Below are positions 361 through 32,136 of a stretch of DNA of 32,276 bases, one piece after another (the first letter of the stretch is position 1; each line of letters starts with the position of its first letter). The stretch lies in the IMG/VR virus record IMGVR_UViG_2703718849_000002, positions 1-32,276 of that record; one strand, 5' to 3'. Made by a program: the position numbers and the translations under genes. This DNA is from a virus. Its lineage: Duplodnaviria > Heunggongvirae > Uroviricota > Caudoviricetes. The notes under the pieces are model-generated. The model was not told the DNA's origin. It ran no database searches and saw only the letters and a program-made list of their open reading frames with translations.

Positions 361-675
361 TCAGAAGCTATTTGGATTGCTTGGCCATTGCGGCAATTTT
401 GATTCTACTGGGGTGTGTTTGGGTTTGAGTCCGTTTAAGTAGTCGAGGCGCTCAATGGCGCATTTATACATAGCAATCTGCTCTGATGACATGTCGTCGT
501 ATGACATGCCTTTGAACTTTTTAATTATCGATTCTGCCTCATGTATAAGGTGCTTCTTCCTCATGAGTTCAGCTGTATGCTTAGAGCTTACAGGAGATAA
601 CTTTGCCCATATGAAGCAGATGATTACAACAGCGACTACTATGCCGGGTATAAACATTTGCTGCTTTATCCTCAA
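361..675 (-). CDS. Hypothetical small membrane protein (one N-terminal transmembrane helix) co-transcribed with cI; sits where lambda has rexAB
   Basis: 104-aa ORF whose start overlaps the cI stop by 4 nt; hydrophobic stretch IPGIVVAVVIICFIWA; no family recognised. Confidence 0.6.
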   Translation of the reverse strand: MRIKQQMFIPGIVVAVVIICFIWAKLSPVSSKHTAELMRKKHLIHEAESIIKKFKGMSYDDMSSEQIAMYKCAIERLDYLNGLKPKHTPVESKLPQWPSNPNSF

Positions 676-1358
676 ACTTTTGGCAGATCGTCCTGGTCTA
701 CGTACCTGGTGTGTTTCACAATAGCTGAAACAAAATGCATTTTATCAACTTCTTCAACAGGAAGAGTGATTGGGCGGTGATCACTGTTTATGCTACTAAA
801 CTGATAATCACCGTCTCTTGTTTTGTTCATGATCTTTATCATGTTGTGACCGTCTTTGGTCCTTACAAAGACTTCATCACCTGGATGTACTGGCGTATTT
901 GGTTCAATAACAACATATTCTCCTGACTGAATCCTTGGCCACATGCTGTCACCCTTAACCTTCAGACCGTAAGCATCTTTATCGCCGCTGTAGATGCTTA
1001 ACCAACCGGATCTGAATTCAATCATATCCACTGAGCCATCAACTCCCAAAACGGCTTCACCAATTACCGGAACAAAACCCGCACGAACGTTACCCGCAAA
1101 CTCAAGATGGTCTGTAGCTCCAGCTTTACCATCTACAAGCATGTCCATCCATCCGCGTGGGAGATTAAAAGATTTTTCAATTAGTTCCATCATATCGTCA
1201 GCAATGCGTTTTTTTCCGCTTTTTCCTTCCGGATACAGCATTCTGGAAACGTATGATGGTTCCCTTTCTATTCGACGAGCCAACTCTGAGGCCTTTCCAT
1301 TACAGAATCGGTCTCTTATCTCTATCAGCCTTAGTCGTCTTTGTTCGTATTTATCCAT
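672..1358 (-). CDS. cI: cI-like prophage repressor (N-terminal HTH, C-terminal LexA/S24 self-cleaving peptidase domain)
   Basis: 228 aa; GDSM serine motif and downstream lysine typical of the LexA/cI S24 family; divergent from cro across an operator region. Confidence 0.85.
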   Translation of the reverse strand: MDKYEQRRLRLIEIRDRFCNGKASELARRIEREPSYVSRMLYPEGKSGKKRIADDMMELIEKSFNLPRGWMDMLVDGKAGATDHLEFAGNVRAGFVPVIGEAVLGVDGSVDMIEFRSGWLSIYSGDKDAYGLKVKGDSMWPRIQSGEYVVIEPNTPVHPGDEVFVRTKDGHNMIKIMNKTRDGDYQFSSINSDHRPITLPVEEVDKMHFVSAIVKHTRYVDQDDLPKV

Positions 1359-1466: not shown

Positions 1467-1697
1467 ATGGAAGAACTCCGCTTGTATCTGAACTCCCTTT
1501 CACTGGAAGAGCAGAGAGAATTTGCCACCAAGTGCGGAACTTCTATCGGCTATTTGAGGAAAGCACTTAGCCGTAATCATGAATTGGGCGCAGCACTTTG
1601 TGTTCTGATTGAGAAGTTCAGCAATGGTGAAGTGACTCGCAAAGACCTTCATCCGGTTGATTGGGAAAGCATCTGGCCTGAATTAATGGCCGCTTAA
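1467..1697 (+). CDS. cro: Cro-like HTH regulator (YdaS/Cro family)
   Basis: 76 aa, first gene of the rightward operon from PR, good SD (GGAAGGAGA), HTH-like segment. Confidence 0.65.
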   Translation: MEELRLYLNSLSLEEQREFATKCGTSIGYLRKALSRNHELGAALCVLIEKFSNGEVTRKDLHPVDWESIWPELMAA

Positions 1698-1813: not shown

Positions 1814-2095
1814 ATGGGTACTATTGCAACTAAAAGCAAGAAAGCGGCTCGCATCGAGTCAGCCTTGCTGAACAAACTGGCACTGATGGGGCAGAAGACA
1901 TTCGCTCGCGCGATGGGGGTTCCGGAATACCAGGTAAGCCGATGGAAGAATGGTTTCTTCTCGCAGGTAAGCATGATGCTGGCTGTTCTGGAATACGGAA
2001 TCGAAGACGATGAAATGGCTGAATTGACTAAGCGGCTTGCCGATTACCTGACAAAAGAAAAAGCCCCGAAGAACGGCGAATTCTTCGAGGCCTGA
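1814..2095 (+). CDS. cII: cII-like transcriptional activator of lysogeny
   Basis: 93 aa; ALRIESALLNK, QISRWK and SMLLAVLEWG-type motifs closely resemble lambda CII as remembered. Confidence 0.85.
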   Translation: MGTIATKSKKAARIESALLNKLALMGQKTFARAMGVPEYQVSRWKNGFFSQVSMMLAVLEYGIEDDEMAELTKRLADYLTKEKAPKNGEFFEA

Positions 2096-2129: not shown

Positions 2130-2291
2130 ATGACAAAACGTAGTAAGAAATACCAGGAAAAAGAAGAGATTCGACCCCCTGATTCACCTGAGGGATTAGT
2201 GGTAGCCGCAGCAAATAACAGGGCGTTCGCAGAGCGCCTTGTTGGTGTTTACAGACTAGCCAAAGCAGGAGTGAAACATGGGCGTCGTTAA
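2130..2291 (+). CDS. Possible small basic protein (53 aa) between cII and the O gene
   Basis: ATG with SD (CAGGAGTAATT); overlaps the upstream candidate O start by 14 nt; not in the supplied track (under 60 aa). Confidence 0.3.
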   Translation: MTKRSKKYQEKEEIRPPDSPEGLVVAAANNRAFAERLVGVYRLAKAGVKHGRR

Positions 2292-3168
2292 GTTAGCTGA
2301 TTACAGGCATAACCCTGTACAACATCAGGAGGCATCCAGTATGGGGTATGTCTCTATACACCGCCAGTTTATGGACAGCAGGCTCTATAAGGACTCTCAG
2401 GCAGTACATCTTTGGCTTCACTTAATCCTCAAGGCTAATCACGAATCTACTGTCGTCAATACGGATATCGGTCCGATAACTGTTGATCGCGGTCAGATGA
2501 TAACTGGACGCCCGTCGCTGGTCAGAGAAACATTCATCCCCGACAACAAAGTTCGGAGCTTATTACGGACTTTTGAGTCGAAAGGGATGCTTAATATTTG
2601 CTCGATGGGGAAGAAATTTAGCCTGTTTACAATCGTTAAATATGACGATTTTCAGGCAAAAAATTGTCCAACGGTTGTCCAACGGTTGTCCAACGCAAAC
2701 ACCAGTAATGGCGCGGCTCTCAGCGGAGATTGTCCAACGGTTGTCCAACGGTTGTCCATAAACAATAATATAAATAATATCTCTAATACTGACGTATTAG
2801 AGAGTGCCACAGCAGACAAAAAGTCTGACAAGAAAAAACCTTCCGTTAGCTGTCAGGATGTTGTCGATGCTTACCACGAAATCCTTCCTGAAGCGCCAAG
2901 AATCCGCGCACTGAATGACAAGCGTAAAAACCAGATCCGAACGTTCTGGCGCAAAGCCGGAGTGATAACCCGACAGCTTGACGGGCATGGTTTTACGATG
3001 CAGGACTGGAGAAATTATTTGAGCTACGTAGGCGAAAATTGCCGATGGATGTTCGAAGAGCGTCCAAACCATCAACGCGGAACTGTCTGGCACAAAAAGG
3101 GATTTGATTTCCTGCTTAACGATAATACCTACCTGAAAGTTCGTGAGGGTGAACACGATGACCGATAA
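2278..3168 (+). CDS. O: Replication initiator protein (lambda O / P22 gene 18 analogue) containing the origin iterons; alternative start at 2341 has a perfect AGGAGG SD
   Basis: Position after cII; tandem iterons inside the coding sequence produce the CPTVVQRLSN protein repeats; followed by the helicase gene. Confidence 0.8.
   Translation: MGVVKLADYRHNPVQHQEASSMGYVSIHRQFMDSRLYKDSQAVHLWLHLILKANHESTVVNTDIGPITVDRGQMITGRPSLVRETFIPDNKVRSLLRTFESKGMLNICSMGKKFSLFTIVKYDDFQAKNCPTVVQRLSNANTSNGAALSGDCPTVVQRLSINNNINNISNTDVLESATADKKSDKKKPSVSCQDVVDAYHEILPEAPRIRALNDKRKNQIRTFWRKAGVITRQLDGHGFTMQDWRNYLSYVGENCRWMFEERPNHQRGTVWHKKGFDFLLNDNTYLKVREGEHDDR
2664..2759. repeat. Replication origin: two clusters of 11-bp direct repeats TTGTCCAACGG (3 copies at 2664-2695, 2-3 copies at 2730-2759) followed by an AT-rich stretch (2760-2800)
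   Basis: Read directly; same architecture as lambda ori (iterons inside O followed by an AT-rich unwinding element). Confidence 0.8.
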
Positions 3169-4594
3169 TTTTTATGCGCCGCCCCATAGCATCGAGGCAG
3201 AGCAGGCGGTGATTGGTGGATTGCTTCTGGATGATGACAGCAGTGAGCGCGTCCAGAAAGTTCTGGCGATGCTGAAGCCCGATTCATTTTACAGCCGACC
3301 ACACAAAATCCTTTTCGAAGAGATAACCAGAATGCACCGGGAGCAAAAGCCAGTAGATGGCCTGACGCTTTTCGATGAACTGGAGCGTAAATCGTTAACG
3401 GCGTCTGTTGGCGGTTTTGCTTATATCGCTGAGATCGCAAAGAACACGCCAAGCGCCGCAAACATCGTTGCCTATGCAATGCAGGTTCGCGAAACCGCAA
3501 TGGAACGCTACGCCATCAACCGCATGACTGAAGCGACGGAATTGCTCTATTCCCGCAACGGAATGACTGCAACGCAGAAGTACGAAGCTATTCAGGCGAT
3601 TTTCACGCAACTGACAGACCATGCAAAAACCGGATCGCGTCGCGGCCTTCGCTCATTTGGCGAGGTCATGGAAGACTGGGTTAGCGACCTTGAGAAGCGA
3701 TTTGACCCGTCAGGCGAACAGCGAGGAATGAGCACAGGCATCCCATCGCTGGACAGGATGCTGTCACCGAAAGGTCTGGTGAAAGGCTCTCTGTTTGTCA
3801 TTGGCGCTCGCCCTAAGATGGGGAAAACGACGCTATACAGCCAGATGGCAATCAACTGCGCAGTGCATGAGAAAAAGCCCGCTCTGATGTTCAGCCTTGA
3901 AATGCCAGGTGACCAGATACTGGAAAAACTGGTAGGGCAGAAGTCAGGTGTTAACCCGAATATTTTTTACCTTCCGGCGACAAATGACTCTGATGACGGC
4001 TATCAGGGTGATTACGATGGTGACTTCAACAGGGCGATCGAAACAGCCAATCGCTTGAGTGAAATCGACATGCTTTACATCGACGACACGCCGGGATTAT
4101 CTCTGGCTCAAATCGTCAGCGAAAGCCGTCGAATCAAGCGAGAAAAAGGATGTGTTGGCATGATTCTGGTCGATTACCTGACACTAATGACCGCTGAAAA
4201 GGCCGATCGCAACGACCTTGCTTACGGCATGATCACCAAAGGACTGAAGAACCTTGCCAAAGAGCTTGATTGCGTTGTTGTGCTTCTGACACAGCTTAAC
4301 CGCGCACTGGAAAGCCGAACCAATAAACGCCCATTACCAAGTGACTCACGAGATACAGGGCAGATTGAACAGGATTGCGATTATTGGGTGGGGATCCATC
4401 GTGAAGGTGCTTTTGATGACAGCGTTCCTCCTGGTGAAACCGAACTAATCCTTCGCCTCAATCGTCATGGCAATACCGGAACGGTGTATTGCATTCAGGC
4501 AAATGGCGCTATTTATGACACAGACCAACAGTCTGCTGAAATGCGCCGCCGTGAACGTGAGGAACCGCAGTCCAAGAAGAAAGGAGGATTCTGA
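3158..4594 (+). CDS. DnaB-family replicative helicase (P22 gene 12 type)
   Basis: Walker A GARPKMGKTT and DnaB-like N-terminal and RecA-like motifs; start taken at ATG 3158 (SD GAGGG), overlapping the O stop. Confidence 0.9.
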   Translation: MTDNFYAPPHSIEAEQAVIGGLLLDDDSSERVQKVLAMLKPDSFYSRPHKILFEEITRMHREQKPVDGLTLFDELERKSLTASVGGFAYIAEIAKNTPSAANIVAYAMQVRETAMERYAINRMTEATELLYSRNGMTATQKYEAIQAIFTQLTDHAKTGSRRGLRSFGEVMEDWVSDLEKRFDPSGEQRGMSTGIPSLDRMLSPKGLVKGSLFVIGARPKMGKTTLYSQMAINCAVHEKKPALMFSLEMPGDQILEKLVGQKSGVNPNIFYLPATNDSDDGYQGDYDGDFNRAIETANRLSEIDMLYIDDTPGLSLAQIVSESRRIKREKGCVGMILVDYLTLMTAEKADRNDLAYGMITKGLKNLAKELDCVVVLLTQLNRALESRTNKRPLPSDSRDTGQIEQDCDYWVGIHREGAFDDSVPPGETELILRLNRHGNTGTVYCIQANGAIYDTDQQSAEMRRREREEPQSKKKGGF

Positions 4595-10050: not shown

Positions 10051-10505
10051 GCAGAGTAGCCGCGATTATCTCCGCTCTGGTTATCTGCATCATCGTCTGC
10101 CTGTCATGGGCTGTTAATCATTACCGTGATAACGCAATCGCCTACAAAGAGCAGCGCGATAACAAGGCCAGTGAACTGGAGAAGGCGAACGCCACCATCG
10201 CTGACATGCGGAAGCGTCAACGTGATGTAGCAGAACTCGACGCAAGATACACAAAGGAGCTTGCTGATGCTAACGCGACTATCGAAAGTCTCCGTGCTGA
10301 TGTTTCTGCTGGGCGTAAGCGCCTGCAAGTCGCCGCCACCTGTGCAAAGTCAACGACCGGAGCCAGCGGCATGGGCGATGGAGAAAGCCCAGGACTTACA
10401 GCAGATGCTGAACTCAATTATTACCGTCTCCGAAGTGGAATCGACAGGATAACCGCGCAGGTTAACTACTTGCAGGAATACATCAGGACGCAATGCCTTC
10501 GATGA
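10047..10505 (+). CDS. Rz: Rz i-spanin (inner-membrane component)
   Basis: 152 aa, N-terminal TM helix and coiled coil; lambda Rz-like. Confidence 0.85.
10261..10452 (+). CDS. Rz1: Rz1 o-spanin lipoprotein, embedded in the +1 frame of Rz
   Basis: Signal peptide with lipobox (LLGVSAC) followed by a Pro-rich mature region; fully nested in Rz. Confidence 0.75.
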
Positions 10506-15818: not shown

Positions 15819-16703
15819 ATGGAAAACGAACTGATCATCGACGGTCAGGTTATTGACCTGTCTGAAACACAGGAAAATGCAGAAGAAACCATCATCCAAA
15901 CAGAGTCACAGCCTGAGAATGAAAGCCAGGATGACAACGGAAAAGAGATGGCAACTGATCCTGAAAAAACCGAAGAGACACCAGAAGATTACGCCTTGCG
16001 TATTGGTGATGAAGAAATTCAGCTTAACGCTGACGATGATGATCACATTGACGGGCAACCTGCACCGCAATGGGTGAAAGATCTTCGCAAAGGCTTCAAA
16101 GAAACACAGAAAGAAAACCGTGAGTTGCGCCGCCAGCTTGAGGAAGCATTAGCCAAGCCTGCGGAACATCAGCAACCACAACCAGACGCTATTCCACCAA
16201 AACCGACTCTTGAGTCGTGTGATTATGACGAACAGGCGTTTGAACAGGCATTGACTGATTGGCATGAGAAAAAAGGCCGTGTCGAACAGCAGCAGCAACA
16301 AAAACTACGTCAGCAACAGGAATACCAACAGCGTTTCCAGCAAAGGGTAGAAGCGCATAAACAACGGGCAGCCAAACTTCCTGTGAAAGATTATCAGGAA
16401 ATGGAGGCCATTGTTCTTAGTGAGCTACCACCAATTCAGCAGGAAATCATCATTCACTGTGCAGACGAAGGCTCTGAACTACTCGCCTATGGCTTAGGTA
16501 AGAGCCAGCAATTACGCCAGCGTGTAGCCGCTGAGACAGATCCAATTCGCGCAGCATTCCTCTTGGGGCAGATTAGCAAACAGGTAAGCCTTGCTCCAAA
16601 ACCAAAGAAAGCCATCAAGCCAGAGCCGGAAGTACGTGGTGGCGGTGCTGATGCGAAACAAGACGAATTCAACAAATTATGCCCCGGCGCAAAAATAGAA
16701 TAA
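15819..16703 (+). CDS. Scaffolding protein (P22 gp8 analogue)
   Basis: 294 aa, acidic N-terminus, Q/E-rich helical region, basic C-terminus; located between portal and coat. Confidence 0.65.
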   Translation: MENELIIDGQVIDLSETQENAEETIIQTESQPENESQDDNGKEMATDPEKTEETPEDYALRIGDEEIQLNADDDDHIDGQPAPQWVKDLRKGFKETQKENRELRRQLEEALAKPAEHQQPQPDAIPPKPTLESCDYDEQAFEQALTDWHEKKGRVEQQQQQKLRQQQEYQQRFQQRVEAHKQRAAKLPVKDYQEMEAIVLSELPPIQQEIIIHCADEGSELLAYGLGKSQQLRQRVAAETDPIRAAFLLGQISKQVSLAPKPKKAIKPEPEVRGGGADAKQDEFNKLCPGAKIE

Positions 16704-25869: not shown

Positions 25870-28071
25870 ATGCCAGATATCACCGCAAATGTTGTGGTCA
25901 GCATGCCTTCGCAACTCTTCACTATGGCGCGTTCTTTTAAAGCCGTAGCCAATGGTAAAATTTATATCGGAAAAATTGACACTGACCCGGTAAATCCTGA
26001 AAACCAGATTCAGATTTATGTGGAAAACGAAGACGGCTCTCACGTTCCTGTATCCCAGCCAATCATCATTAACGCCGCTGGTTACCCTGTATATAACGGA
26101 CAGATTGCCAAATTCGTAACTGTGCAAGGCCATTCTATGGCTGTGTACGATGCGTATGGAGCGCGGCAATTCTATTTTCCTAATGTGCTGAAGTATGACC
26201 CTGATCAACTTGAACAGCGATTATCACTGCCTACAGCACCTGAGATTATAGGGGTATATCCATCAGGTAAATTAGCAGATGTATTAAATGATGTAACCCC
26301 GGAGCAATTCGGAGCTATCGGTGATGGGGTTGCTGACGATACGCAGGCATTAAAGGCTATGTTTAAATACATCAATGACATGCCGATTTCATTCACAGAC
26401 ACAGCAACAGAACTTAACCCCCACCTGGATGTGGCAGCAAAACGTGTTGTTTTGCGCGGCCTGTACATGCACACAGAGACAATCTTTATCCCTTCTGGGG
26501 TGCAGATTTTCCAGCCTGGATACTCTTATTTCCGCCGAAACGTGCAGCAAGGTTTTTACTTCAACCCTCCTTCTGGCGAAGGTAACATGGCTGCTGTAAG
26601 CACCTGTGTTTATTTGAAGTCTGGTAATACCTGGTATCTTAATTCTGACCCAATGTTACTTCCACATGGTGCACAGATAGATGACGGCACTATCCGCACA
26701 GGAGCCAGACACATTGATATTGAGAATCTTAGTATCATTACCAAGCCTGGAACCTTGCTTGGTTTACGCTGGCTAGGTGCAGCAGGATGCACAACTCGCA
26801 ATCTAAGTATTGGTGAGAACACACCAAGCAGCACAGCATCAACCGCCAGAATTCCTAAGGTCGGTATGCTTCACAGTATTGCTTGGGGCAGTGTTCACAC
26901 AACACCTAAGATTCTATACAAAACTCAAGGTGCTGTTTTCTACGAGCAAAACGGTGGTTCTGAGGTGAAAAACGCTTACATTGCTCGTCTTGGTCAGGAT
27001 TCAACTTATTCAGAACAGGTAATTTATAAACCGGAAGATTTTGACGAAACCGGCGATGTCGCAATTACACAGTACGGGCGCAGTTCTGTGCAGTTCAGGT
27101 ATTGTGTAACAGAAACATGCTCATTCATGTATGTTAACCAGGGTGATGCAGGAAGTAACGGCGGACTTAAGGTTGACGGTTGTCACATGGAAGCCACGGG
27201 TGGTAAGGCGAAACATTGTTTCTATATTATCAACTCGGACGCTGACATCCGTCTAAATGGTCTTTTCATTCAAGACGAAAGTATAGCAAACAGTTCAGTG
27301 GTCTACGTCAAGAGCTGCGTTAAGGGTCGTAGTGTTGTAGATATTCACGGTTACATGATGTTCAACGGTTACAGGTTCCTTGACGGCATAAACTCTGGAG
27401 CTGTAGTCAACATACGAAATCCCAACAATGGCCAGTTCCAGTATGGAAAACTTGGGAAATGGGATTTAGTTAATGAAGTTACAGGCATTTCACCTTCAAC
27501 GTTATACATCGACCCAGTTAACGGTAATGATGAAAATTGGGGTCTCAATGGAGCGCGTGGTCTAAAATCTTTGAAACATGCTGCCAAAATTTGCAGAATG
27601 CTTGAAATAAACGACGTTTACACCAACGCAGGAAGTATAAATTTAACGGAAGATACAGAGTTACCATCAGCCACAATTCGTGGCCTAGGCGGTATTGTGT
27701 GCAATGCTGATGGTAGTTTGATTGCATTGCGTAAAACGAATGTAAATCTGACGTTGAATGGAGGTGTAACAAGCCCTGCCGGGTATCACTTGATCAAAGT
27801 TGCCACCACTGAGCCAGTAAATGTAGTTTCCACTGGAGACATGACAACTACAACATCTGCTAATATCTTTCTGTTTCAAGCAAACGGTAATGTTGAATGG
27901 ACGCATAGGGCCGGTGGTGGCCTAGCCTGCTATCGATATGCCGGGACGCAGTCTGTATCGTTCTCGGCAGTGATTGGTTTGAATATCAGGTCTACAACCA
28001 GACCAGCTATAGATTCGACACCTGTATCTGGTAATGTTGTTACTAAATACTCTTCTATTTTGAACTCTTAA
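25870..28071 (+). CDS. Tailspike protein: conserved P22/Sf6-type N-terminal head-binding domain fused to a divergent beta-helix receptor-binding domain
   Basis: Start at [10 protein letters not shown] (25870); first ~110 aa resemble P22/Sf6 tailspike N-termini; the remainder carries a [15 protein letters not shown] pectate-lyase-like motif. Confidence 0.9.
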
Positions 28072-28101: not shown

Positions 28102-29514
28102 TTAACATTTATGTTCAAAGTCTATTACAAAAACATCACCTTTTCTCATTAGGGTAAGTATTTTATTCTTCTTTATAATTTCGAATGAACACATTTCAGA
28201 TATCACTTTATTGCGCATGCTTTTTTCAGGGTATGATTTGGAGCTTGCTATTCCATTAACCCTTAAGTAACTAACACCCCATGACCATGAATTAGACATG
28301 TAATTTGGAGATAATTTATATATTATAGGAAACTTTTGTGCTAGCTCATAGTATACCGGACTTCTTGGCATAGACCCATTAATTACAATTAATGGATCTT
28401 CTACTTTTAAAACATCACCCTGCACCAAGTTTATAACCTGAATCCTTCTTTGCTCATCAGCTTTTAGTGCAGATGCATATGAAGAGCAGAGCACAAAAGA
28501 AAAAAACAAAAGTATTGTGTACGACAACTTGATTAATTTATTAACTCTAATTCCGATAAAAATTAAAGGGATGTACAGCAACAGAGATATACCAACCGAT
28601 GTCCTGGGTGTAAACCATGGATCTGAGAGAATTAAATTAGAGCCAGGAGATATGATTATTGCCAAAATCGTGAAGAATACGGCAACAACTAAAGCGGAAT
28701 GGTTTTTTCTGTAAATAAAAAAGTTATGCAACACTGAAATAGACAAGATTGATATTAATGGAAGTAAATAGTAAAAATAACCACTGTTAAATAGTGGTAG
28801 TAAGATTATACTTATGAATTTCTCATAGTTATTAACTAATCCATGAAAAAAATGATCTATGCCAATTACTTCATCTCTTCCGTTGAAGTTTAGTGTCAAA
28901 TAATAAGACAGAAACTTGTATAATACAATAGACAATACAAAACTTAATAATGAGATAGATAAAAATTTTAGTGATTCAATTAATGAGTTTGATCCTTTGG
29001 TGACTGAATTTGCTGCTATAATTAATGCTGCTACTGGATATAAAAAAATACTGTTTTGATAAATAAAAAGAGAGATTAATAGAAGTGATGTGGATGAAAT
29101 TAAAAATGCAACATTATTCCCCTTGAAAATCAAAGGGATAAATACCAACAGGATTGATAATGATATTGGAAGAGAATCGAATCTGTATGATAAAATCTCA
29201 ATTGCCATTGGCGATGTTGCAATTATAGATGAAGATAATATCAATATATCATCATCTAAATTCATCGACTTAGAAAACAAATAGCCTACATATGTTAAAG
29301 TAATCACTGAAATTATTTGAGAAAATGGAAAAAAATCAGTAATAGGCGTGCCGAAAGTGATGATATTATAAATAAGGTCTGATAATGGTCTTCCGTCAAT
29401 AGCCCAACCATATCCCAAGTGAGATCTATTTATATCATCAACATAGTAATTACCACCAAGTATTATTGGCAAAATAAATGCCAGCGGTATCATGAGTAAA
29501 TATTTATTTTTCAT
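28102..29514 (-). CDS. gtrC: Serotype-specific O-antigen glucosyltransferase (GtrC / Gtr type-specific), polytopic membrane protein
   Basis: 470 aa with many hydrophobic segments; third gene of a gtrA-gtrB operon; strongly AT-rich. Confidence 0.7.
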
Positions 29515-30430
29515 TTTTAATATTCCTTATTATATATCGCGGCCTGTTTTTTGTTTCTATGTATATTCTTCCAATATACTCGCCAAGAACACCAATTCCT
29601 ATCAGCTGTACACCGCCAAGAAACAGAATTGATACCAAAATTGATGGGTAGCCACGAACAGGATTGCCAAACGCGACAGTATCAAAAATAAGCCACGTCC
29701 CATACAGAAACGACAGCCCTGCCACGAACAATCCTATATATGTCCACATGCGCAATGGAAAAGTTGAGAAACTGGTGATTCCTTCAAGCGCGAGATTCCA
29801 CAGCTTCCAGCCATTGAACTTGCTGTCACCAGCTATGCGTTCTGCGCGAGCATACTCGACGACGTCAGTCTTTCCACCAACCCAGCTAAGTATGCCTTTC
29901 ATAAACAGGTTGCGTTCAGGCATTGATTTAATGTTCTCAACCACTTCACGCGACATAAGCCGAAAGTCTCCGACGTTTTCCTCAATCTTCGGATTGCTTA
30001 TTTTATTGTGGAGCTTATAGAACCACTCAGCCGTTTTTCGCTTCAGTCTGCCATCCGTTGAGCGGTCAGATCGTTTAGCAAGCACCATATCAGCGCCTGC
30101 CTGCCATTTTTCAATCAGTTGAGGTATTACCTCAATCGGGTCTTGCAGGTCAACATCAATAGGAATAACAGCATCGCCTGTTGCATGGTCTAACCCTGCA
30201 AACAATGCTGGTTCTTTACCAAAGTTGCGCGTAAATGACAGCGGAACAACTAGCGGATCAGAAACAGCCAGAGCGTAAATTATTGACTCTGTAGAGTCTT
30301 TGCTGCCGTCATTTATGAAAACAATTTCCACCTCATATGGCTTCAACTCTTCGAATTCACGTACCGTTTTATAAAAAATTGGTATCGCTTCTTCTTCATT
30401 GAAGACAGGAACTACAAGAGATATCTTCAT
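29504..30430 (-). CDS. gtrB: Bactoprenol glucosyltransferase GtrB (GT2 family)
   Basis: 308 aa; GT2 motifs (VVPVFNEEE…, …NDGSKD…, DVDLQDP) and two C-terminal TM helices. Confidence 0.9.
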
Positions 30431-30789
30431 TTCGCATCCCTAAAGACAATGAACTTTGAATATACGAAACCGCACACCAGGCTGATGGCGGAGAAAGTGA
30501 TAAGGGTTAGCATCGGGGGAAGTGCGCATCTATCAGCAGCCCATCCAACAGTTGCACTCAGTGTTCCCATGAACCCGACATATAACATGTAGCGCATCGT
30601 TGTGGTCGATGCTTTGAATGTGAATCTTGCATTCGCGAAGAAGCTAAAACTCACAGCCACAACGAAACCTGCGAAGTTTGCCAGAGCCTGATTGGTATGC
30701 GCGGCATAGATACATACACCAAAAACCACCCAGTGTATAAGTGTGTTCAGCACACCAATCGAGGTGTACTTTGCAAATAGCTTTAACAT
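30427..30789 (-). CDS. gtrA: GtrA flippase for undecaprenyl-phosphate glucose
   Basis: 120-aa four-TM protein, highly similar to GtrA of serotype-converting phages as remembered. Confidence 0.9.
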
Positions 30790-30942: not shown

Positions 30943-32136
30943 TCACTCCACCTTTTCATCAATCCAATCCGCCCACCACTGCATCATTTCTCTGCGCTTA
31001 TCGAGATACTGAGCATGGTTGTAAATACCGCGCACAGATCCGCCGTTGGCATGTGCAAGTTGCACTTCAATGGCGTCGGCAGGCCATTCGTGCTCGTTCA
31101 TAATCGTGCTGAATTCATGCCTGAATCCGTGACCGCTTTCCAGACCTTCATAGCCGATTTGTTTGATCACAAGCAGTACCGCGTTCTCGCAGATTGGCTT
31201 CTTCTTATCGTTGCGCCCGGCAAAAACAAACTCTGAGACTGGTTTGGTTATTGAGCTTAGCGTAGTGAGAAGTTCAACCACCTGGTCTGACATAGGAACC
31301 ACATGAATTTTGCGGCCCTTCATCACACTGGCGTCGATAGTGATAATCCTGTTTTCAAAATCGACGTTCTTCCATTGCATGGAACGAAGCTCTTTCGTTC
31401 TTAGGGCTGTGTAGCGTAAAACTTTGGTCGCAATGAGCGATACGATACTTCCTGAAAATGTTGCAAGTGCTTTGTTGAATGCCGGGATCTGGTCTGCTGG
31501 AAGAAACGGGAAGTTCTTCTTGCGGTATCCCTTCATGGCGTCAGCAAGGTCAGGTGCCGGGTTATATTTAGCCCTACCAGTGACAATAGCGTAACGGAAA
31601 ACCTCGCCGCATCTTCTGCGGGCTTTGTTGGCTCGCTCCATTGCACCGCGATCTTCAAATCTGCGGATTACTTCCAGCAGTTGCATCGGCTCAATATCCT
31701 GAATTTCAAGGCCGCCAATGATAGGTAAAATGTCGTCGTCAAACATTTTTGCAAGTTCATTTGCATAGCCTACTGACCAGACTTGCTTCTTGTGCTCGTA
31801 CCATTCCTTGTAAATGGCGCTAAAGGAGTTGTTGTTAGACGAAGCCTTTTTCGCTTTTACCGGATCGATGCCAACCGAGATGTCTTTCCTCGCGGTCCAT
31901 ACTTTATCCCTTGCCTCCTGCAAAGTCATAAGCGGATATTTTCCGACGGTCAGGATTTTCTCCTTACCGTCAATCTTGTAGCGAAGCTGCCATACCTTTT
32001 TCCCTGACACAGGGACATAAAGGTACAGGCCATTACCATCGAGCAGGCGGTATGGTTTTTCTTTCGGCTTTGCTGCTTCAATCTGCTTAACGGTGAGCAT
32101 GGGTAAAAATCCGGTGGGTAAAATTATTTTATCCAC
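30943..32136 (-). CDS. int: Tyrosine integrase (P4-like family with N-terminal arm-binding DUF4102-type domain)
   Basis: 397 aa; N-terminal …YRLLDGNGLYLYV…, catalytic region with …HGFRHEF… and C-terminal tyrosine motif; adjacent to a tRNA 3' end. Confidence 0.9.
   Translation of the reverse strand: MDKIILPTGFLPMLTVKQIEAAKPKEKPYRLLDGNGLYLYVPVSGKKVWQLRYKIDGKEKILTVGKYPLMTLQEARDKVWTARKDISVGIDPVKAKKASSNNNSFSAIYKEWYEHKKQVWSVGYANELAKMFDDDILPIIGGLEIQDIEPMQLLEVIRRFEDRGAMERANKARRRCGEVFRYAIVTGRAKYNPAPDLADAMKGYRKKNFPFLPADQIPAFNKALATFSGSIVSLIATKVLRYTALRTKELRSMQWKNVDFENRIITIDASVMKGRKIHVVPMSDQVVELLTTLSSITKPVSEFVFAGRNDKKKPICENAVLLVIKQIGYEGLESGHGFRHEFSTIMNEHEWPADAIEVQLAHANGGSVRGIYNHAQYLDKRREMMQWWADWIDEKVE

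Follow-up and report, generated by a model that had tools for sequence, protein, structure and literature searches.

A putative replication origin of 11-bp direct repeats within the initiator gene of an Sf6/HK620-like temperate phage

The O-like gene of the phage DNA analysed here (the window, 32,276 nucleotides) contains a compact array of 11-bp direct repeats, which raises the question of whether these repeats form the origin of replication of the phage and, if so, which of the known origin types they resemble. A preliminary description had placed an origin inside the O gene, and the comparative evidence agrees with it: the repeats lie in a gene for a phrog_345 initiator, and a gene for a DnaB-type helicase lies downstream. 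Judging from these comparisons, it is highly probable that positions 2664-2803 serve an Sf6/HK620-like (P22-like, lambdoid) temperate phage as its origin of replication, situated inside the phage's own initiator gene. The repeats have already been annotated and published as a putative origin, and finding them here correctly rediscovers an element that was known before. Sf6 (AF547987) has a putative rep_origin at 28385..28480, equivalent to window positions 2663-2758, HK620 gene O (AF335538) has a putative rep_origin at 10369..10464 that is joined from two pieces, and a putative ori is annotated in gene 18 of phage L (MW013503), whose six 11-bp TGTCCAACGGA repeats were described by Zaworski et al. 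2020 as the likely origin (PMC8022706). For the Sf6/HK620/L subfamily we found no experimental mapping of the origin, and the public records and papers use the words "putative" or "likely".

The gene order is cI-cro-cII-O-helicase-nin, as in a lambdoid phage. The two replication genes, and the two folded domains of the initiator, are as follows.

2278 to 3168, plus strand: replication initiator gene (ORF of 296 aa), corresponding to Sf6 gene 43, "O" of HK620 and HK022 and "gene 18" of phage L
2341 to 2655, plus strand: N-terminal winged-helix-like domain, residues 22-126, presumed to bind the iterons (hhalign, AlphaFold2)
2845 to 3165, plus strand: C-terminal domain, residues 190-296, presumed to recruit the helicase (AlphaFold2 pLDDT about 80-90 over residues 190-293)
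3143 to 4594, plus strand: DnaB-type replicative helicase gene of the P22 gp12 type (PF00772, E 3e-31; PF03796, E 3e-60; phrog_19, E 1.5e-137)

In a PHROGs search the initiator protein matches phrog_345, "replication initiation O-like", over residues 1-296 (E 5.8e-85). Searches of Pfam, NCBIfam and PDB sequences gave no match to it at threshold, so the family link is taken from PHROGs, tblastn and profile comparison. At the DNA level, all 891 bases of the gene show 99.0-99.3% identity to Sf6, HK106, mEp234, HK75 and others, while identity to ST160 and SE1 is 84.5%; the protein is 82.5% identical to that of phage L. The helicase ORF starts at 3143, and an ATG at 3158 corresponds to the annotated start of Sf6 gene 44; the 5' end of the helicase gene overlaps the 3' end of the initiator gene, and no loader gene intervenes. 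The same initiator type is carried by Stx-converting phages, including VT2-Sakai and Stx2 II, and replication of Stx phages is linked to toxin production (PMC7466680).

The array and the elements next to it all lie inside the part of the initiator gene that codes for a predicted disordered linker, the repeats beginning 8 bp past the KYDDFQ codons.

2664 to 2696, plus strand: iteron cluster 1, core TGTCCAA, made up of TTGTCCAACGG (2664-2674), TTGTCCAACGG (2675-2685) and TTGTCCAACGC (2686-2696)
2697 to 2729, plus strand: spacer of 33 bp, variable in sequence (minor-allele fraction 0.134) and fixed in length
2730 to 2762, plus strand: iteron cluster 2, made up of TTGTCCAACGG (2730-2740), TTGTCCAACGG (2741-2751) and the degenerate unit TTGTCCATAAA (2752-2762)
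2758 to 2788, no strand assigned: AT-rich tract beginning ATAAACAATAATATAAATAATAT, the presumed DNA unwinding element (nearest-neighbour duplex stability)
2780 to 2803, no strand assigned: perfect palindrome TCTCTAATAC-TGAC-GTATTAGAGA, with 10-bp arms and a 4-nt loop

The repeats reported earlier at 2664-2695 and 2730-2759 are present as described and lie far beyond chance. Tandem Repeats Finder returns both clusters with a period of 11 and a 100% match, the first at 2664-2695 (2.9 copies) and the second at 2730-2758 (2.6 copies). The five iteron copies with at most one mismatch all lie in 2664-2751, and no further copy at that threshold occurs on either strand in the rest of the 32-kb window. 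By hand arithmetic an exact 11-mer should turn up by chance about 0.015 times in 64.5 kb; the two-unit pattern TGTCCAANNNNTGTCCA is likewise found within the window at the array only. Cluster 1 does consist of three 11-bp units, as had been stated, but the third is not identical to the others and ends in C, and the spacer, given before as 34 bp, measures 33 bp (2697-2729). The layout is therefore 33+33+33 bp, with the cluster starts 66 bp apart, and the degenerate unit TTGTCCATAAA of cluster 2 extends into the AT-rich tract. Between 2200 and 3300 there are no DnaA boxes (TTWTNCACA), and GATC occurs only at 2485 and 2934, so that nothing points to a part played by DnaA or SeqA. Folding of the array brought out a small CAAC-G-GTTG dyad at the unit junctions; this dyad was dropped as a candidate element, since it is not conserved in phage L, which has ATGTCC units.

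In Sf6 and HK620 the whole element is essentially identical to that of the window. Phage L shares the 3+3 array (wTGTCCAACGG units), the AT-rich tract and the palindrome, and differs in the base that opens each unit and at 18% of the protein positions. The window thus has both the homologous initiator and the 3+3 array, 66 bp apart, of the Sf6/HK620/HK022/L type. Relatives of the initiator amount to at least 120 matches, and among the matches listed the period of 11 is kept in 67 of the 68 distinct relatives and the cluster-to-cluster lag of 66 bp in 64 of the 68, the four spacing exceptions being copy-number variants or single-cluster forms. The degenerate last unit of cluster 2 (the core, then T/C-AAAC-AAT) is present in all relatives.

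A first analysis of core conservation was discarded, since its sequences had been picked by their core, and it was redone with 63 distinct sequences chosen solely by an N-domain identity of at least 70%. In this set (n=63) the 42 core columns (TGTCCAA) have a minor-allele fraction of 0.0011 with third codon positions included, compared with 0.281 at third codon positions in the DNA for the N-domain, 0.165 in the 4-nt linkers that separate the cores and 0.134 in the 33-bp spacer, of which 29/33 columns are variable. Variation in the TGTCCAA core is lower by a factor of about 250 than at third codon positions, and this holds equally at all three codon positions. Because the 11-bp unit is read in three frames, protein coding cannot explain this conservation, and DNA-level purifying selection acts on the repeat cores.

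Could the repeats nevertheless be a matter of the protein, that is, a peptide of 22 residues (CPTVVQRLS...) present twice in a flexible linker, with no function in the DNA? The 66-bp unit does encode a repeated CPTVVQRLSN ... CPTVVQRLSI, and there are natural in-frame variants of 274, 296 and 318 aa with 1, 2 and 3 clusters, as would be expected from unequal crossing-over in any tandem duplication. We nonetheless regard a purely protein-level explanation as extremely unlikely. Eleven is not a multiple of three, so the three units fall in three frames and make no peptide repeat at that scale, and the invariance of the cores next to such variable third codon positions is left without a reason. 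The encoded segment is predicted to be disordered, the peptide varies freely (CPTVVQRLS, VPADYQQIT, VPTECQQSA, CPADVQPVS) against a constant period and spacing, and the homologous repeats of SPP1 are proven protein-binding sites.

If the cores are binding sites, the N-terminal domain of the initiator is the likely protein to occupy them. A 17-member profile of this domain matches SPP1 G38P in hhalign with a probability of 98.8% (E 1e-16, columns 1-106 against residues 4-113), and G38P is also matched in tblastn (E 1e-5). The Pfam model PF09681 (Phage_rep_org_N) is matched by 5 of the 17 relatives, with a best E of 9e-5, and gives no match to the window initiator protein. AlphaFold2, run on a shallow alignment of 31 sequences that are at least 72% identical, gives a helix/beta-hairpin pattern in residues 29-127, where the pLDDT is 72-91, and a pLDDT below 50 for residues 138-188, a predicted disordered linker between two confidently folded domains. 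A Foldseek search of this model against the PDB found no match at E <= 0.001; the weak matches (E >= 0.02) are nearly all winged-helix DNA binders, such as CodY, TubR, MarR and ArsR, a result that is compatible with a winged-helix domain and points to no specific relative.

The core itself varies with the N-domain cluster, the forms being TGTCCAA, TTACCAGC, GTGCCAAC, TGTCCAGC, AATCCAA, GGCCAAC, TTCCCAG and TGTCCGG; with the HK022-type initiator the repeats are TTACCAGCA. The C-terminal domain is swapped among relatives independently of the N-domain, one N-domain cluster being paired with about 10 C-domain clusters, lambda-P-partner types among them, and the palindromes, like the C-domains, are exchanged independently of the N-domain and core. 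These comparisons show the core sequence to be co-inherited with the N-domain through mosaic recombination. Homology and co-inheritance together suggest that the N-domain would bind the repeats.

Next to the array, the segment 2758-2788 is the least stable among all 20-bp and 30-bp duplex windows of the 32 kb, and GC content is 17.5% in 2760-2799. The motif ATAAACAAYAAT of this tract recurs, with its reading frame unchanged, in SPP1 oriL and in two relatives assembled from metagenomes. The "very AT-rich 40 bp" of the preliminary description is indeed AT-rich, but it comprises two elements, an AT-rich tract of about 30 bp and the palindrome at 2780-2803. The palindrome was absent from that description.

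As single-stranded DNA the palindrome has a folding energy of -7.5 kcal/mol (z about -5.4) on either strand. Across 19 distinct sequences its 9 inner pairs are 100% Watson-Crick and all 10 pairs change on both sides, the symmetry being kept in no fewer than 15 different stems. None of 500 shuffles came up to these values, and pairing in the slid controls was 28-46%. The alignment thus shows dyad covariation of the palindrome. Perfect palindromes can also stay perfect via template-switch correction, in which case the argument for selection on this element would weaken.

Palindrome and AT-rich tract might together be a transcription signal and no part of an origin, namely an intrinsic terminator of the minus strand (stem 2803-2780, followed by TATTATTTAT), or the AT-rich tract might be an internal promoter. 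A consensus scan does mark the minus strand at 2803-2780 as terminator-like, and within the repeats it flags weak promoter-like sequences, and the phage L record has minus-strand "terminator" features, one of which, by estimated coordinates, apparently lies over the palindrome. The scan, however, gives 1 terminator-like site where 1.3 are expected, and a stem with 3 G-C pairs out of 10 followed by a tail of mixed A and T would be a weak terminator. Among the 171 cells of the 9 inner pairs there is not one standard G-T (wobble) pair, which fits the symmetry of double-stranded or two-strand DNA better than an RNA stem, where G-U is tolerated; an Rfam scan of the whole window matched no family, and no antisense promoter in need of termination was identified. 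Since a transcription signal would also leave the iterons unexplained, and could coexist with origin function, we consider it very improbable as the explanation of this locus.

The origin of lambda is like that of the window in being placed centrally within the initiator gene, with the DNA-binding half on one side and the partner-binding half on the other, as is also the case for 434, 21 and the Stx-phage variants, and lambda and P22 both share with the window the order of repeats, AT-rich tract and inverted repeat. Lambda O recruits a P-DnaB complex, whereas the partner here would be a DnaB-type helicase of the phage. As the window initiator appears to be, that of lambda is modular, N-domain and iterons being matched in specificity; the four lambda iterons of 18-19 bp, each an inverted repeat bound by an O dimer, lie about 20-24 bp apart (PMC7466680), in contrast to the six asymmetric 11-bp direct repeats of the window. 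What the window has of the lambda type is the layout, and neither a PF04492 N-domain nor 18-20-bp dyad iterons. PF04492 (Phage_rep_O) does not match the window initiator and is weakly matched by 1 of the 17 relatives (E 5e-4), and against lambda O the N-domain has an hhalign probability of 0.5%, i.e. no detectable similarity. The claim of a difference from lambda, and of the distinct initiator specificity taken to follow from it, is correct and holds more strongly than was supposed.

A comparison with P22 gene 18, which had been suggested as a check, gave a contrast and not a match. P22 gene 18 (NC_002371, rep_origin 32840..32984) is like the window gene in its genome position, in the type of its helicase partner (gp12) and in a weakly similar C-domain, an alignment of 116 aa between the C-terminal parts of the window protein and of P22 gp18 having 25% identity (E 2e-4); P22 also has an AT-rich tract followed by a palindrome, ACCCCCT-AA-AGGGGGA. 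The P22 repeats, on the other hand, number four, are lambda-like with a length of about 20 bp and have dyad symmetry (ATTTACCAGATCGGTAAAAC), and the P22 N-domain is unrelated to that of the window. P22 gene 18 was therefore ruled out as the closest relative, being of a different origin type, while the genes of phage L, ST160 and SE1 that are labelled "gp18" are true relatives of the window initiator.

The origin with which the window element has most to be compared is oriL of SPP1, a 356-bp fragment that is bound by G38P and is sufficient for replication in vitro (PMC5737612; PMC6316719). In SPP1 gene 38 about five 11-bp repeats and an AT-rich tract (ATAAACAACAAT...) come right after the homologous domain. 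As in the window, the gene for the initiator itself holds the origin, immediately past that domain, direct repeats with an 11-bp period are followed by an AT-rich tract starting ATAAACAAYAAT in the same reading frame, and a DnaB-family helicase is encoded downstream. By sequence comparison, then, the N-domain (for all that PF09681 does not match the window protein) and the layout of repeats and AT-rich tract are shown to be homologous to those of an experimentally proven origin. SPP1 differs in the single unbroken run formed by its roughly five repeats (core AAAcGACAC), compared with the 3+3 clusters of the window, in having no palindrome past the AT-rich tract, and in its C-terminal domain. 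It also has a separate helicase loader, G39P (gene 39), between genes 38 and 40, whereas the window helicase gene follows the initiator gene directly; the three-gene module of organizer, loader G39P and helicase G40P is not present in the window. With no separate loader gene, the window system would be oriL-like at the origin-recognition step, yet a different module.

A further difference is that SPP1 G38P has a second binding site, oriR, where it has been proposed that forks stall and replication switches to the concatemeric mode (PMC6316719). Since oriR serves as a fork barrier and replication does not initiate there, an iteron array to which such a protein binds need not be a start site. 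The window array could accordingly be bound by the initiator for autoregulation or titration, or as an oriR-like fork-barrier or switch site, with the start elsewhere, and binding within the initiator's own gene could block transcription of its C-terminal half and of the helicase gene. Against this, the array adjoins the least stable duplex of the 32 kb, the defining partner of an initiation site; its layout fits SPP1 oriL, which initiates and lies inside gene 38, and not an intergenic site; no second array that would be the equivalent of oriR was found within the 32-kb window, which is part of the phage genome; and the genetics of phage L, in which the whole replication region and not single genes can replace that of P22, put the origin in the replication-gene region (PMC8022706). 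A bound array that is not the start is for these reasons quite unlikely, and we continue to favour an origin of replication.

How such an origin might work can be outlined in five steps. The winged-helix-like N-domain, a relative of G38P, would bind the TGTCCAA core of the six 11-bp direct repeats, and the two 33-bp clusters, held in a 66-bp (6 x 11) register, would allow a higher-order nucleoprotein complex to form. This complex, with negative supercoiling, would melt the neighbouring AT-rich tract at 2758-2788, and the C-terminal domain would then load the phage DnaB-type helicase onto the melted DNA without a separate loader. The palindrome at the far edge of the tract may act at the DNA level, probably by extruding as a hairpin or cruciform, and could bound or stabilise the bubble or provide a helicase-loading junction. 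We propose that the 66-bp register aligns the bound protomers on roughly one face of the helix. That the 11-bp period would have this effect was suggested beforehand and is a reasonable inference, with which the strict period and the 66-bp (6 x 11) spacing in relatives agree; with a helical repeat of 10.5 bp the two clusters would be offset by about 100 degrees, and a common face would require the DNA to be underwound or wrapped.

More tentatively, the two observations could be joined: the 11-bp-iteron origin may be a direct homologue of SPP1 oriL to which an enterobacterial palindrome has been added for loader-free helicase loading. Such a joint reading is possible rather than probable. For its first part, the shared N-domain, the 11-bp phasing and the ATAAACAAYAAT start may reflect a common origin type across phages of Firmicutes and Proteobacteria. 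For its second part, the palindrome, with arms of 9-10 bp, a T(A/G)A(C/A) loop, free sequence and strict symmetry, may travel with the helicase-recruiting half of the initiator, and an extruded hairpin or cruciform may be needed for loading of a DnaB-type helicase. Neither the oriL homology nor a role for the palindrome is stated in the records or papers searched; the Sf6, HK620 and phage L annotations mention no palindrome, no fixed 66-bp register and no relation to SPP1, and a literature search found no paper tying the 11-bp-iteron origin type to SPP1, which is no proof of absence.

While the main value of this work for the phage itself is one of annotation, in that its probable origin is identified, the comparisons also bear on the lambdoid phages as a group. 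The label "O" or "gene 18" covers two unrelated origin-recognition systems in these phages, one of the lambda/P22 type and one of the SPP1-G38P type. At least eight repeat cores, each with its own N-domain variant, are set on a fixed 11/66-bp scaffold and amount to a natural experiment on initiator specificity. The symmetric, sequence-free palindrome beside the presumed unwinding element is a candidate, open to test, for a step at which loader-independent helicase loading would depend on structure.

Overall, the window belongs to the P22-like phages and resembles Sf6 and HK620; Sf6 covers 74% of it at 97.3% identity. The repeats under study lie inside the gene for a 296-aa initiator, in the following setting.

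Genes around the initiator
672-1358, minus strand, S24-type repressor
1467-1697, plus strand, Cro-like protein
1814-2095, plus strand, CII
2130-2291, plus strand, 53-aa ORF (phrog_1331, E 4e-35)
2278-3168, plus strand, 296-aa initiator containing the repeats (phrog_345 'replication initiation O-like', full length, E 6e-85)
from 3143/3158, plus strand, DnaB-type helicase
beyond the helicase, further downstream, plus strand, nin-type genes

The last 14 bp of the 53-aa ORF are shared with the start of the initiator gene; its counterpart in the Sf6 record is named an HK97 gp53 homologue, and P22, HK022 and phage L have comparable 48-aa ORFs (orf48) ahead of their initiator genes. Comparison of the initiator with Pfam, NCBIfam and PDB sequences gave nothing at threshold.

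Elements of the putative origin
2664-2674 and 2675-2685, iteron units TTGTCCAACGG, cluster 1
2686-2696, third unit of cluster 1, TTGTCCAACGC
2697-2729, 33-bp spacer between the clusters
2730-2740 and 2741-2751, iteron units TTGTCCAACGG, cluster 2
2752-2762, degenerate third unit of cluster 2, TTGTCCATAAA
2758-2788, AT-rich tract
2780-2803, perfect palindrome TCTCTAATAC-TGAC-GTATTAGAGA, directly 3' of the AT-rich tract

The preliminary description had read this stretch as an origin of replication made of 11-bp iterons in two clusters and an AT-rich 40 bp. The iterons are borne out by the sequence and by Tandem Repeats Finder (period 11, 100% matches in both arrays), and the unit and spacer positions therefore give a 33+33+33 bp layout with the clusters in a 66-bp register. 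Across both strands of the 32 kb, the unit occurs five times at no more than one mismatch, always within the array and never outside it, and the two-unit pattern likewise has this single location. The virion-gene part has short tandem repeats of other periods (21, 21 and 10, with about two copies apiece) at 16135-16173, 21493-21534 and 21906-21931. The AT-rich claim holds for the first part: the region 3' of the iterons has a GC content of 17.5%, and by nearest-neighbour energies no 20-bp or 30-bp duplex in the entire window is less stable than 2758-2788. The second half is instead the perfect palindrome, which had been missed. The other least stable duplexes of the window all fall within a low-GC island at 28102-30789 (minus strand; 31-37% GC versus about 48%), which encodes a gtrA / gtrB / GtrII-type glucosyltransferase O-antigen modification operon and is flanked by a tailspike gene with a P22-type head-binding domain (25822-28071, plus strand) and a tyrosine integrase (30943-32136, minus strand).

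An AlphaFold2 model of the initiator, built on a shallow alignment of 31 sequences at least 72% identical, has a confident N-domain with a helix/beta-hairpin pattern (residues 29-127), a confident C-domain (190-293) and a low-confidence segment between them (138-188). Window 2664-2803, from the iterons through the AT-rich tract to the palindrome, codes for residues 129-176, and therefore the origin sits where the gene has the weakest protein constraint. Foldseek found nothing in the PDB at E <= 0.001; its weak matches (E >= 0.02) were nearly all winged-helix DNA binders, and the predicted N-domain fold is compatible with a winged helix, but no more.

The iteron element is not new, having been annotated and published before as a likely origin. 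The initiator gene shares 99.0-99.3% identity with those of Sf6, HK106, mEp234, HK75, IME10 and others, and by gene-start offset the Sf6 rep_origin (28385..28480) corresponds to window 2663-2758, with the text 'putative; repeat region reminiscent of the phage lambda origin; similar to phage HK620'. In the HK620 record, a rep_origin in two pieces lies at the same place, and that of phage L has a 'putative origin of replication'. Zaworski et al. name the six 11-bp repeats of L as the likely origin, set them against the four ~20-bp repeats of lambda and P22, and cite genetics in which the whole L replication region can replace that of P22 while single genes cannot (PMC8022706). No experimental mapping of the Sf6/HK620/L origin type was found. 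The reading of the element as a probable origin is supported.

Homologous regions were drawn from named phages, bacterial genomes and IMG/VR contigs (numbered within L001-L103); the 101 loci hold 68 distinct origin sequences, of which 67 have an 11-bp period and 64 a cluster lag of 66 bp. The sequences that depart from this are L022 and L023, distant metagenome-assembled relatives whose 5-6 units form one contiguous run, and L035 and L037, which are copy-number variants. In all enterobacterial relatives the AT-rich tract is followed by a perfect palindrome whose arms are 9-10 bp long and whose loop is 4 nt. The repeat sequence varies by lineage, the core being TGTCCAAC in the window, Sf6 and L, TTACCAGCA in HK022 and VT2-Sakai, GTGCCAACA in Klebsiella phi6.1 and Erwinia phage 59, TGTCCAGCC in CobraSix, and AATCCAA, GGCCAAC, TTACCAAC, TTCCCAGA or TGTCCGG in various prophages. 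In-frame variants with one cluster (-66 bp, 274 aa) or three (+66 bp, 318 aa) are both common beside the 296-aa form: the relative initiators P0001-P0022 have 318 aa and P0032-P0042 mostly 274, and 66-bp in-frame variation also occurs in the IMG/VR prophage contigs L037 and L052. The 4+3 and 3+2 forms, differing by 11 bp in either direction, come from two IMG/VR prophage contigs (L035, L045) with frameshifted initiators; these are probably dead prophages or assembly errors. We infer that the shape of the element is accounted for by 33 bp being the smallest length that is whole in both 11-bp units and codons; this would give clusters of three units, the 33-bp spacer and natural variants that differ by 66 bp and stay in frame.

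Conservation was measured in 63 distinct sequences, picked solely by N-domain identity of at least 70%. The minor-allele fraction is 0.0011 over the 42 core columns (TGTCCAA x 6) and the same at codon positions 1, 2 and 3, against 0.281 at third codon positions of the N-domain coding region, 0.165 in the 4-nt linkers separating the cores and 0.134 in the 33-bp spacer. As 11 is not a multiple of 3, each unit of a three-unit cluster is read in a different frame. The pattern is one that protein coding cannot generate, and indicates selection at the level of DNA.

N-domains, C-domains, repeat cores and palindromes were each clustered. One N-domain cluster, always with TGTCCAA, is combined with about ten C-domain clusters and about ten palindromes, while one C-domain cluster is paired with N-domains using TGTCCAA, TGTCCAG, TGCCAAC or TTACCAA. 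The O genes of HK022 (L004) and VT2-Sakai (L005) differ from the window in N-domain and repeats (66-67% whole-gene protein identity) but match it from the palindrome onward (window 2780-3168), and the HK022-like joint recurs in L011, L016/L020 and L019/L021. Erwinia phage 59 (L008), L014, L076 and L082 fuse a window-type N-domain and 11-bp iterons to another C-domain (…KGDKWGTADDLKAAEW…). Erwinia phage 59 and several prophages have a lambda-P-type partner gene, which in phage 59 is a loader gene replacing the DnaB-type helicase gene after the initiator. These exchanges place the recombination joints in the AT-rich tract, and the N-domain plus repeats behaves as a single specificity module, as expected if the N-domain binds the repeats.

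In inheritance, the palindrome goes with the initiator's C-terminal half, not with the iterons. It has the same position in L001-L103, with 9-10-bp arms and the loop T(A/G)A(C/A). Among 19 distinct sequences with at least 15 different stems, the inner nine pairs are Watson-Crick in every sequence, and each of the ten pairs has changes on both sides; none of 500 shuffles reached the observed pairing or covariation, and slid registers gave 28-46% pairing. There are no standard G-T wobble pairs in these inner nine pairs, and the evidence points to DNA symmetry over an RNA stem, with the caveat that template-switch correction could maintain perfect palindromes without selection. Folded as single-stranded DNA, each strand reaches about -7.5 kcal/mol (z about -5). 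In lambda and P22, too, the AT-rich tract is followed by an inverted repeat. The palindrome would play a structural part at the border of the unwound region. The annotations of Sf6, HK620 and L make no mention of it. On the minus strand (2803-2770), the palindrome followed by TATTATTTAT fits a simple pattern for intrinsic terminators, a weak resemblance with a T-rich tail, and by estimated coordinates one of the minus-strand 'terminator' features of the phage L record appears over it; this may be an artefact of origin composition.

P22 gene 18, once suggested for comparison, was ruled out as the closest relative: it has four lambda-like ~20-bp dyad repeats and an unrelated N-terminal domain, and weak similarity is confined to its C-terminal part (25% over 116 aa). 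The proposed difference from lambda stands, the N-domain profile having no detectable similarity to lambda O (hhalign probability 0.5%). The profile matches SPP1 G38P, the origin-binding protein, over its full length (hhalign probability 98.8%, E 1e-16; tblastn E 1e-5), and 5 of 17 relatives match PF09681 (Phage_rep_org_N). Immediately after the homologous domain, SPP1 gene 38 carries about five units of 11 bp (GAAACGACAGA, GAAACGACACG, AAAAAGACACG, AAAAAGACACA, GAAACGGATAA), and then an AT-rich tract whose first bases, ATAAACAACAAT, share their reading frame with ATAAACAATAAT of the window. G38P binds the repeats of oriL, the origin inside gene 38, with nanomolar affinity (PMC6316719), and a 356-bp oriL fragment is enough for replication in a reconstituted system (PMC5737612). 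The window element thus is probably homologous to oriL and would work like it at the recognition step. The modules are not the same, because SPP1 has a gene for the helicase loader G39P and no G39P-like gene lies between initiator and helicase in the window.

A possible mechanism, based on co-inheritance and homology, is that N-domains bind the six cores. The 11-bp/66-bp register would set them on roughly one face of underwound DNA, possibly in a higher-order complex, which together with supercoiling may open 2758-2788, the computed least stable duplex. The C-domain, which is observed to be exchanged independently together with its partner type, could then recruit the phage DnaB-type helicase from the next gene, and host primase and polymerase would finally take over, as they do in P22 and SPP1. 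To the annotated origin our analysis adds a G38P-type assignment instead of a lambda O type, a covarying palindrome, and family-wide evidence for selection at the DNA level and for an N-domain/repeat module.
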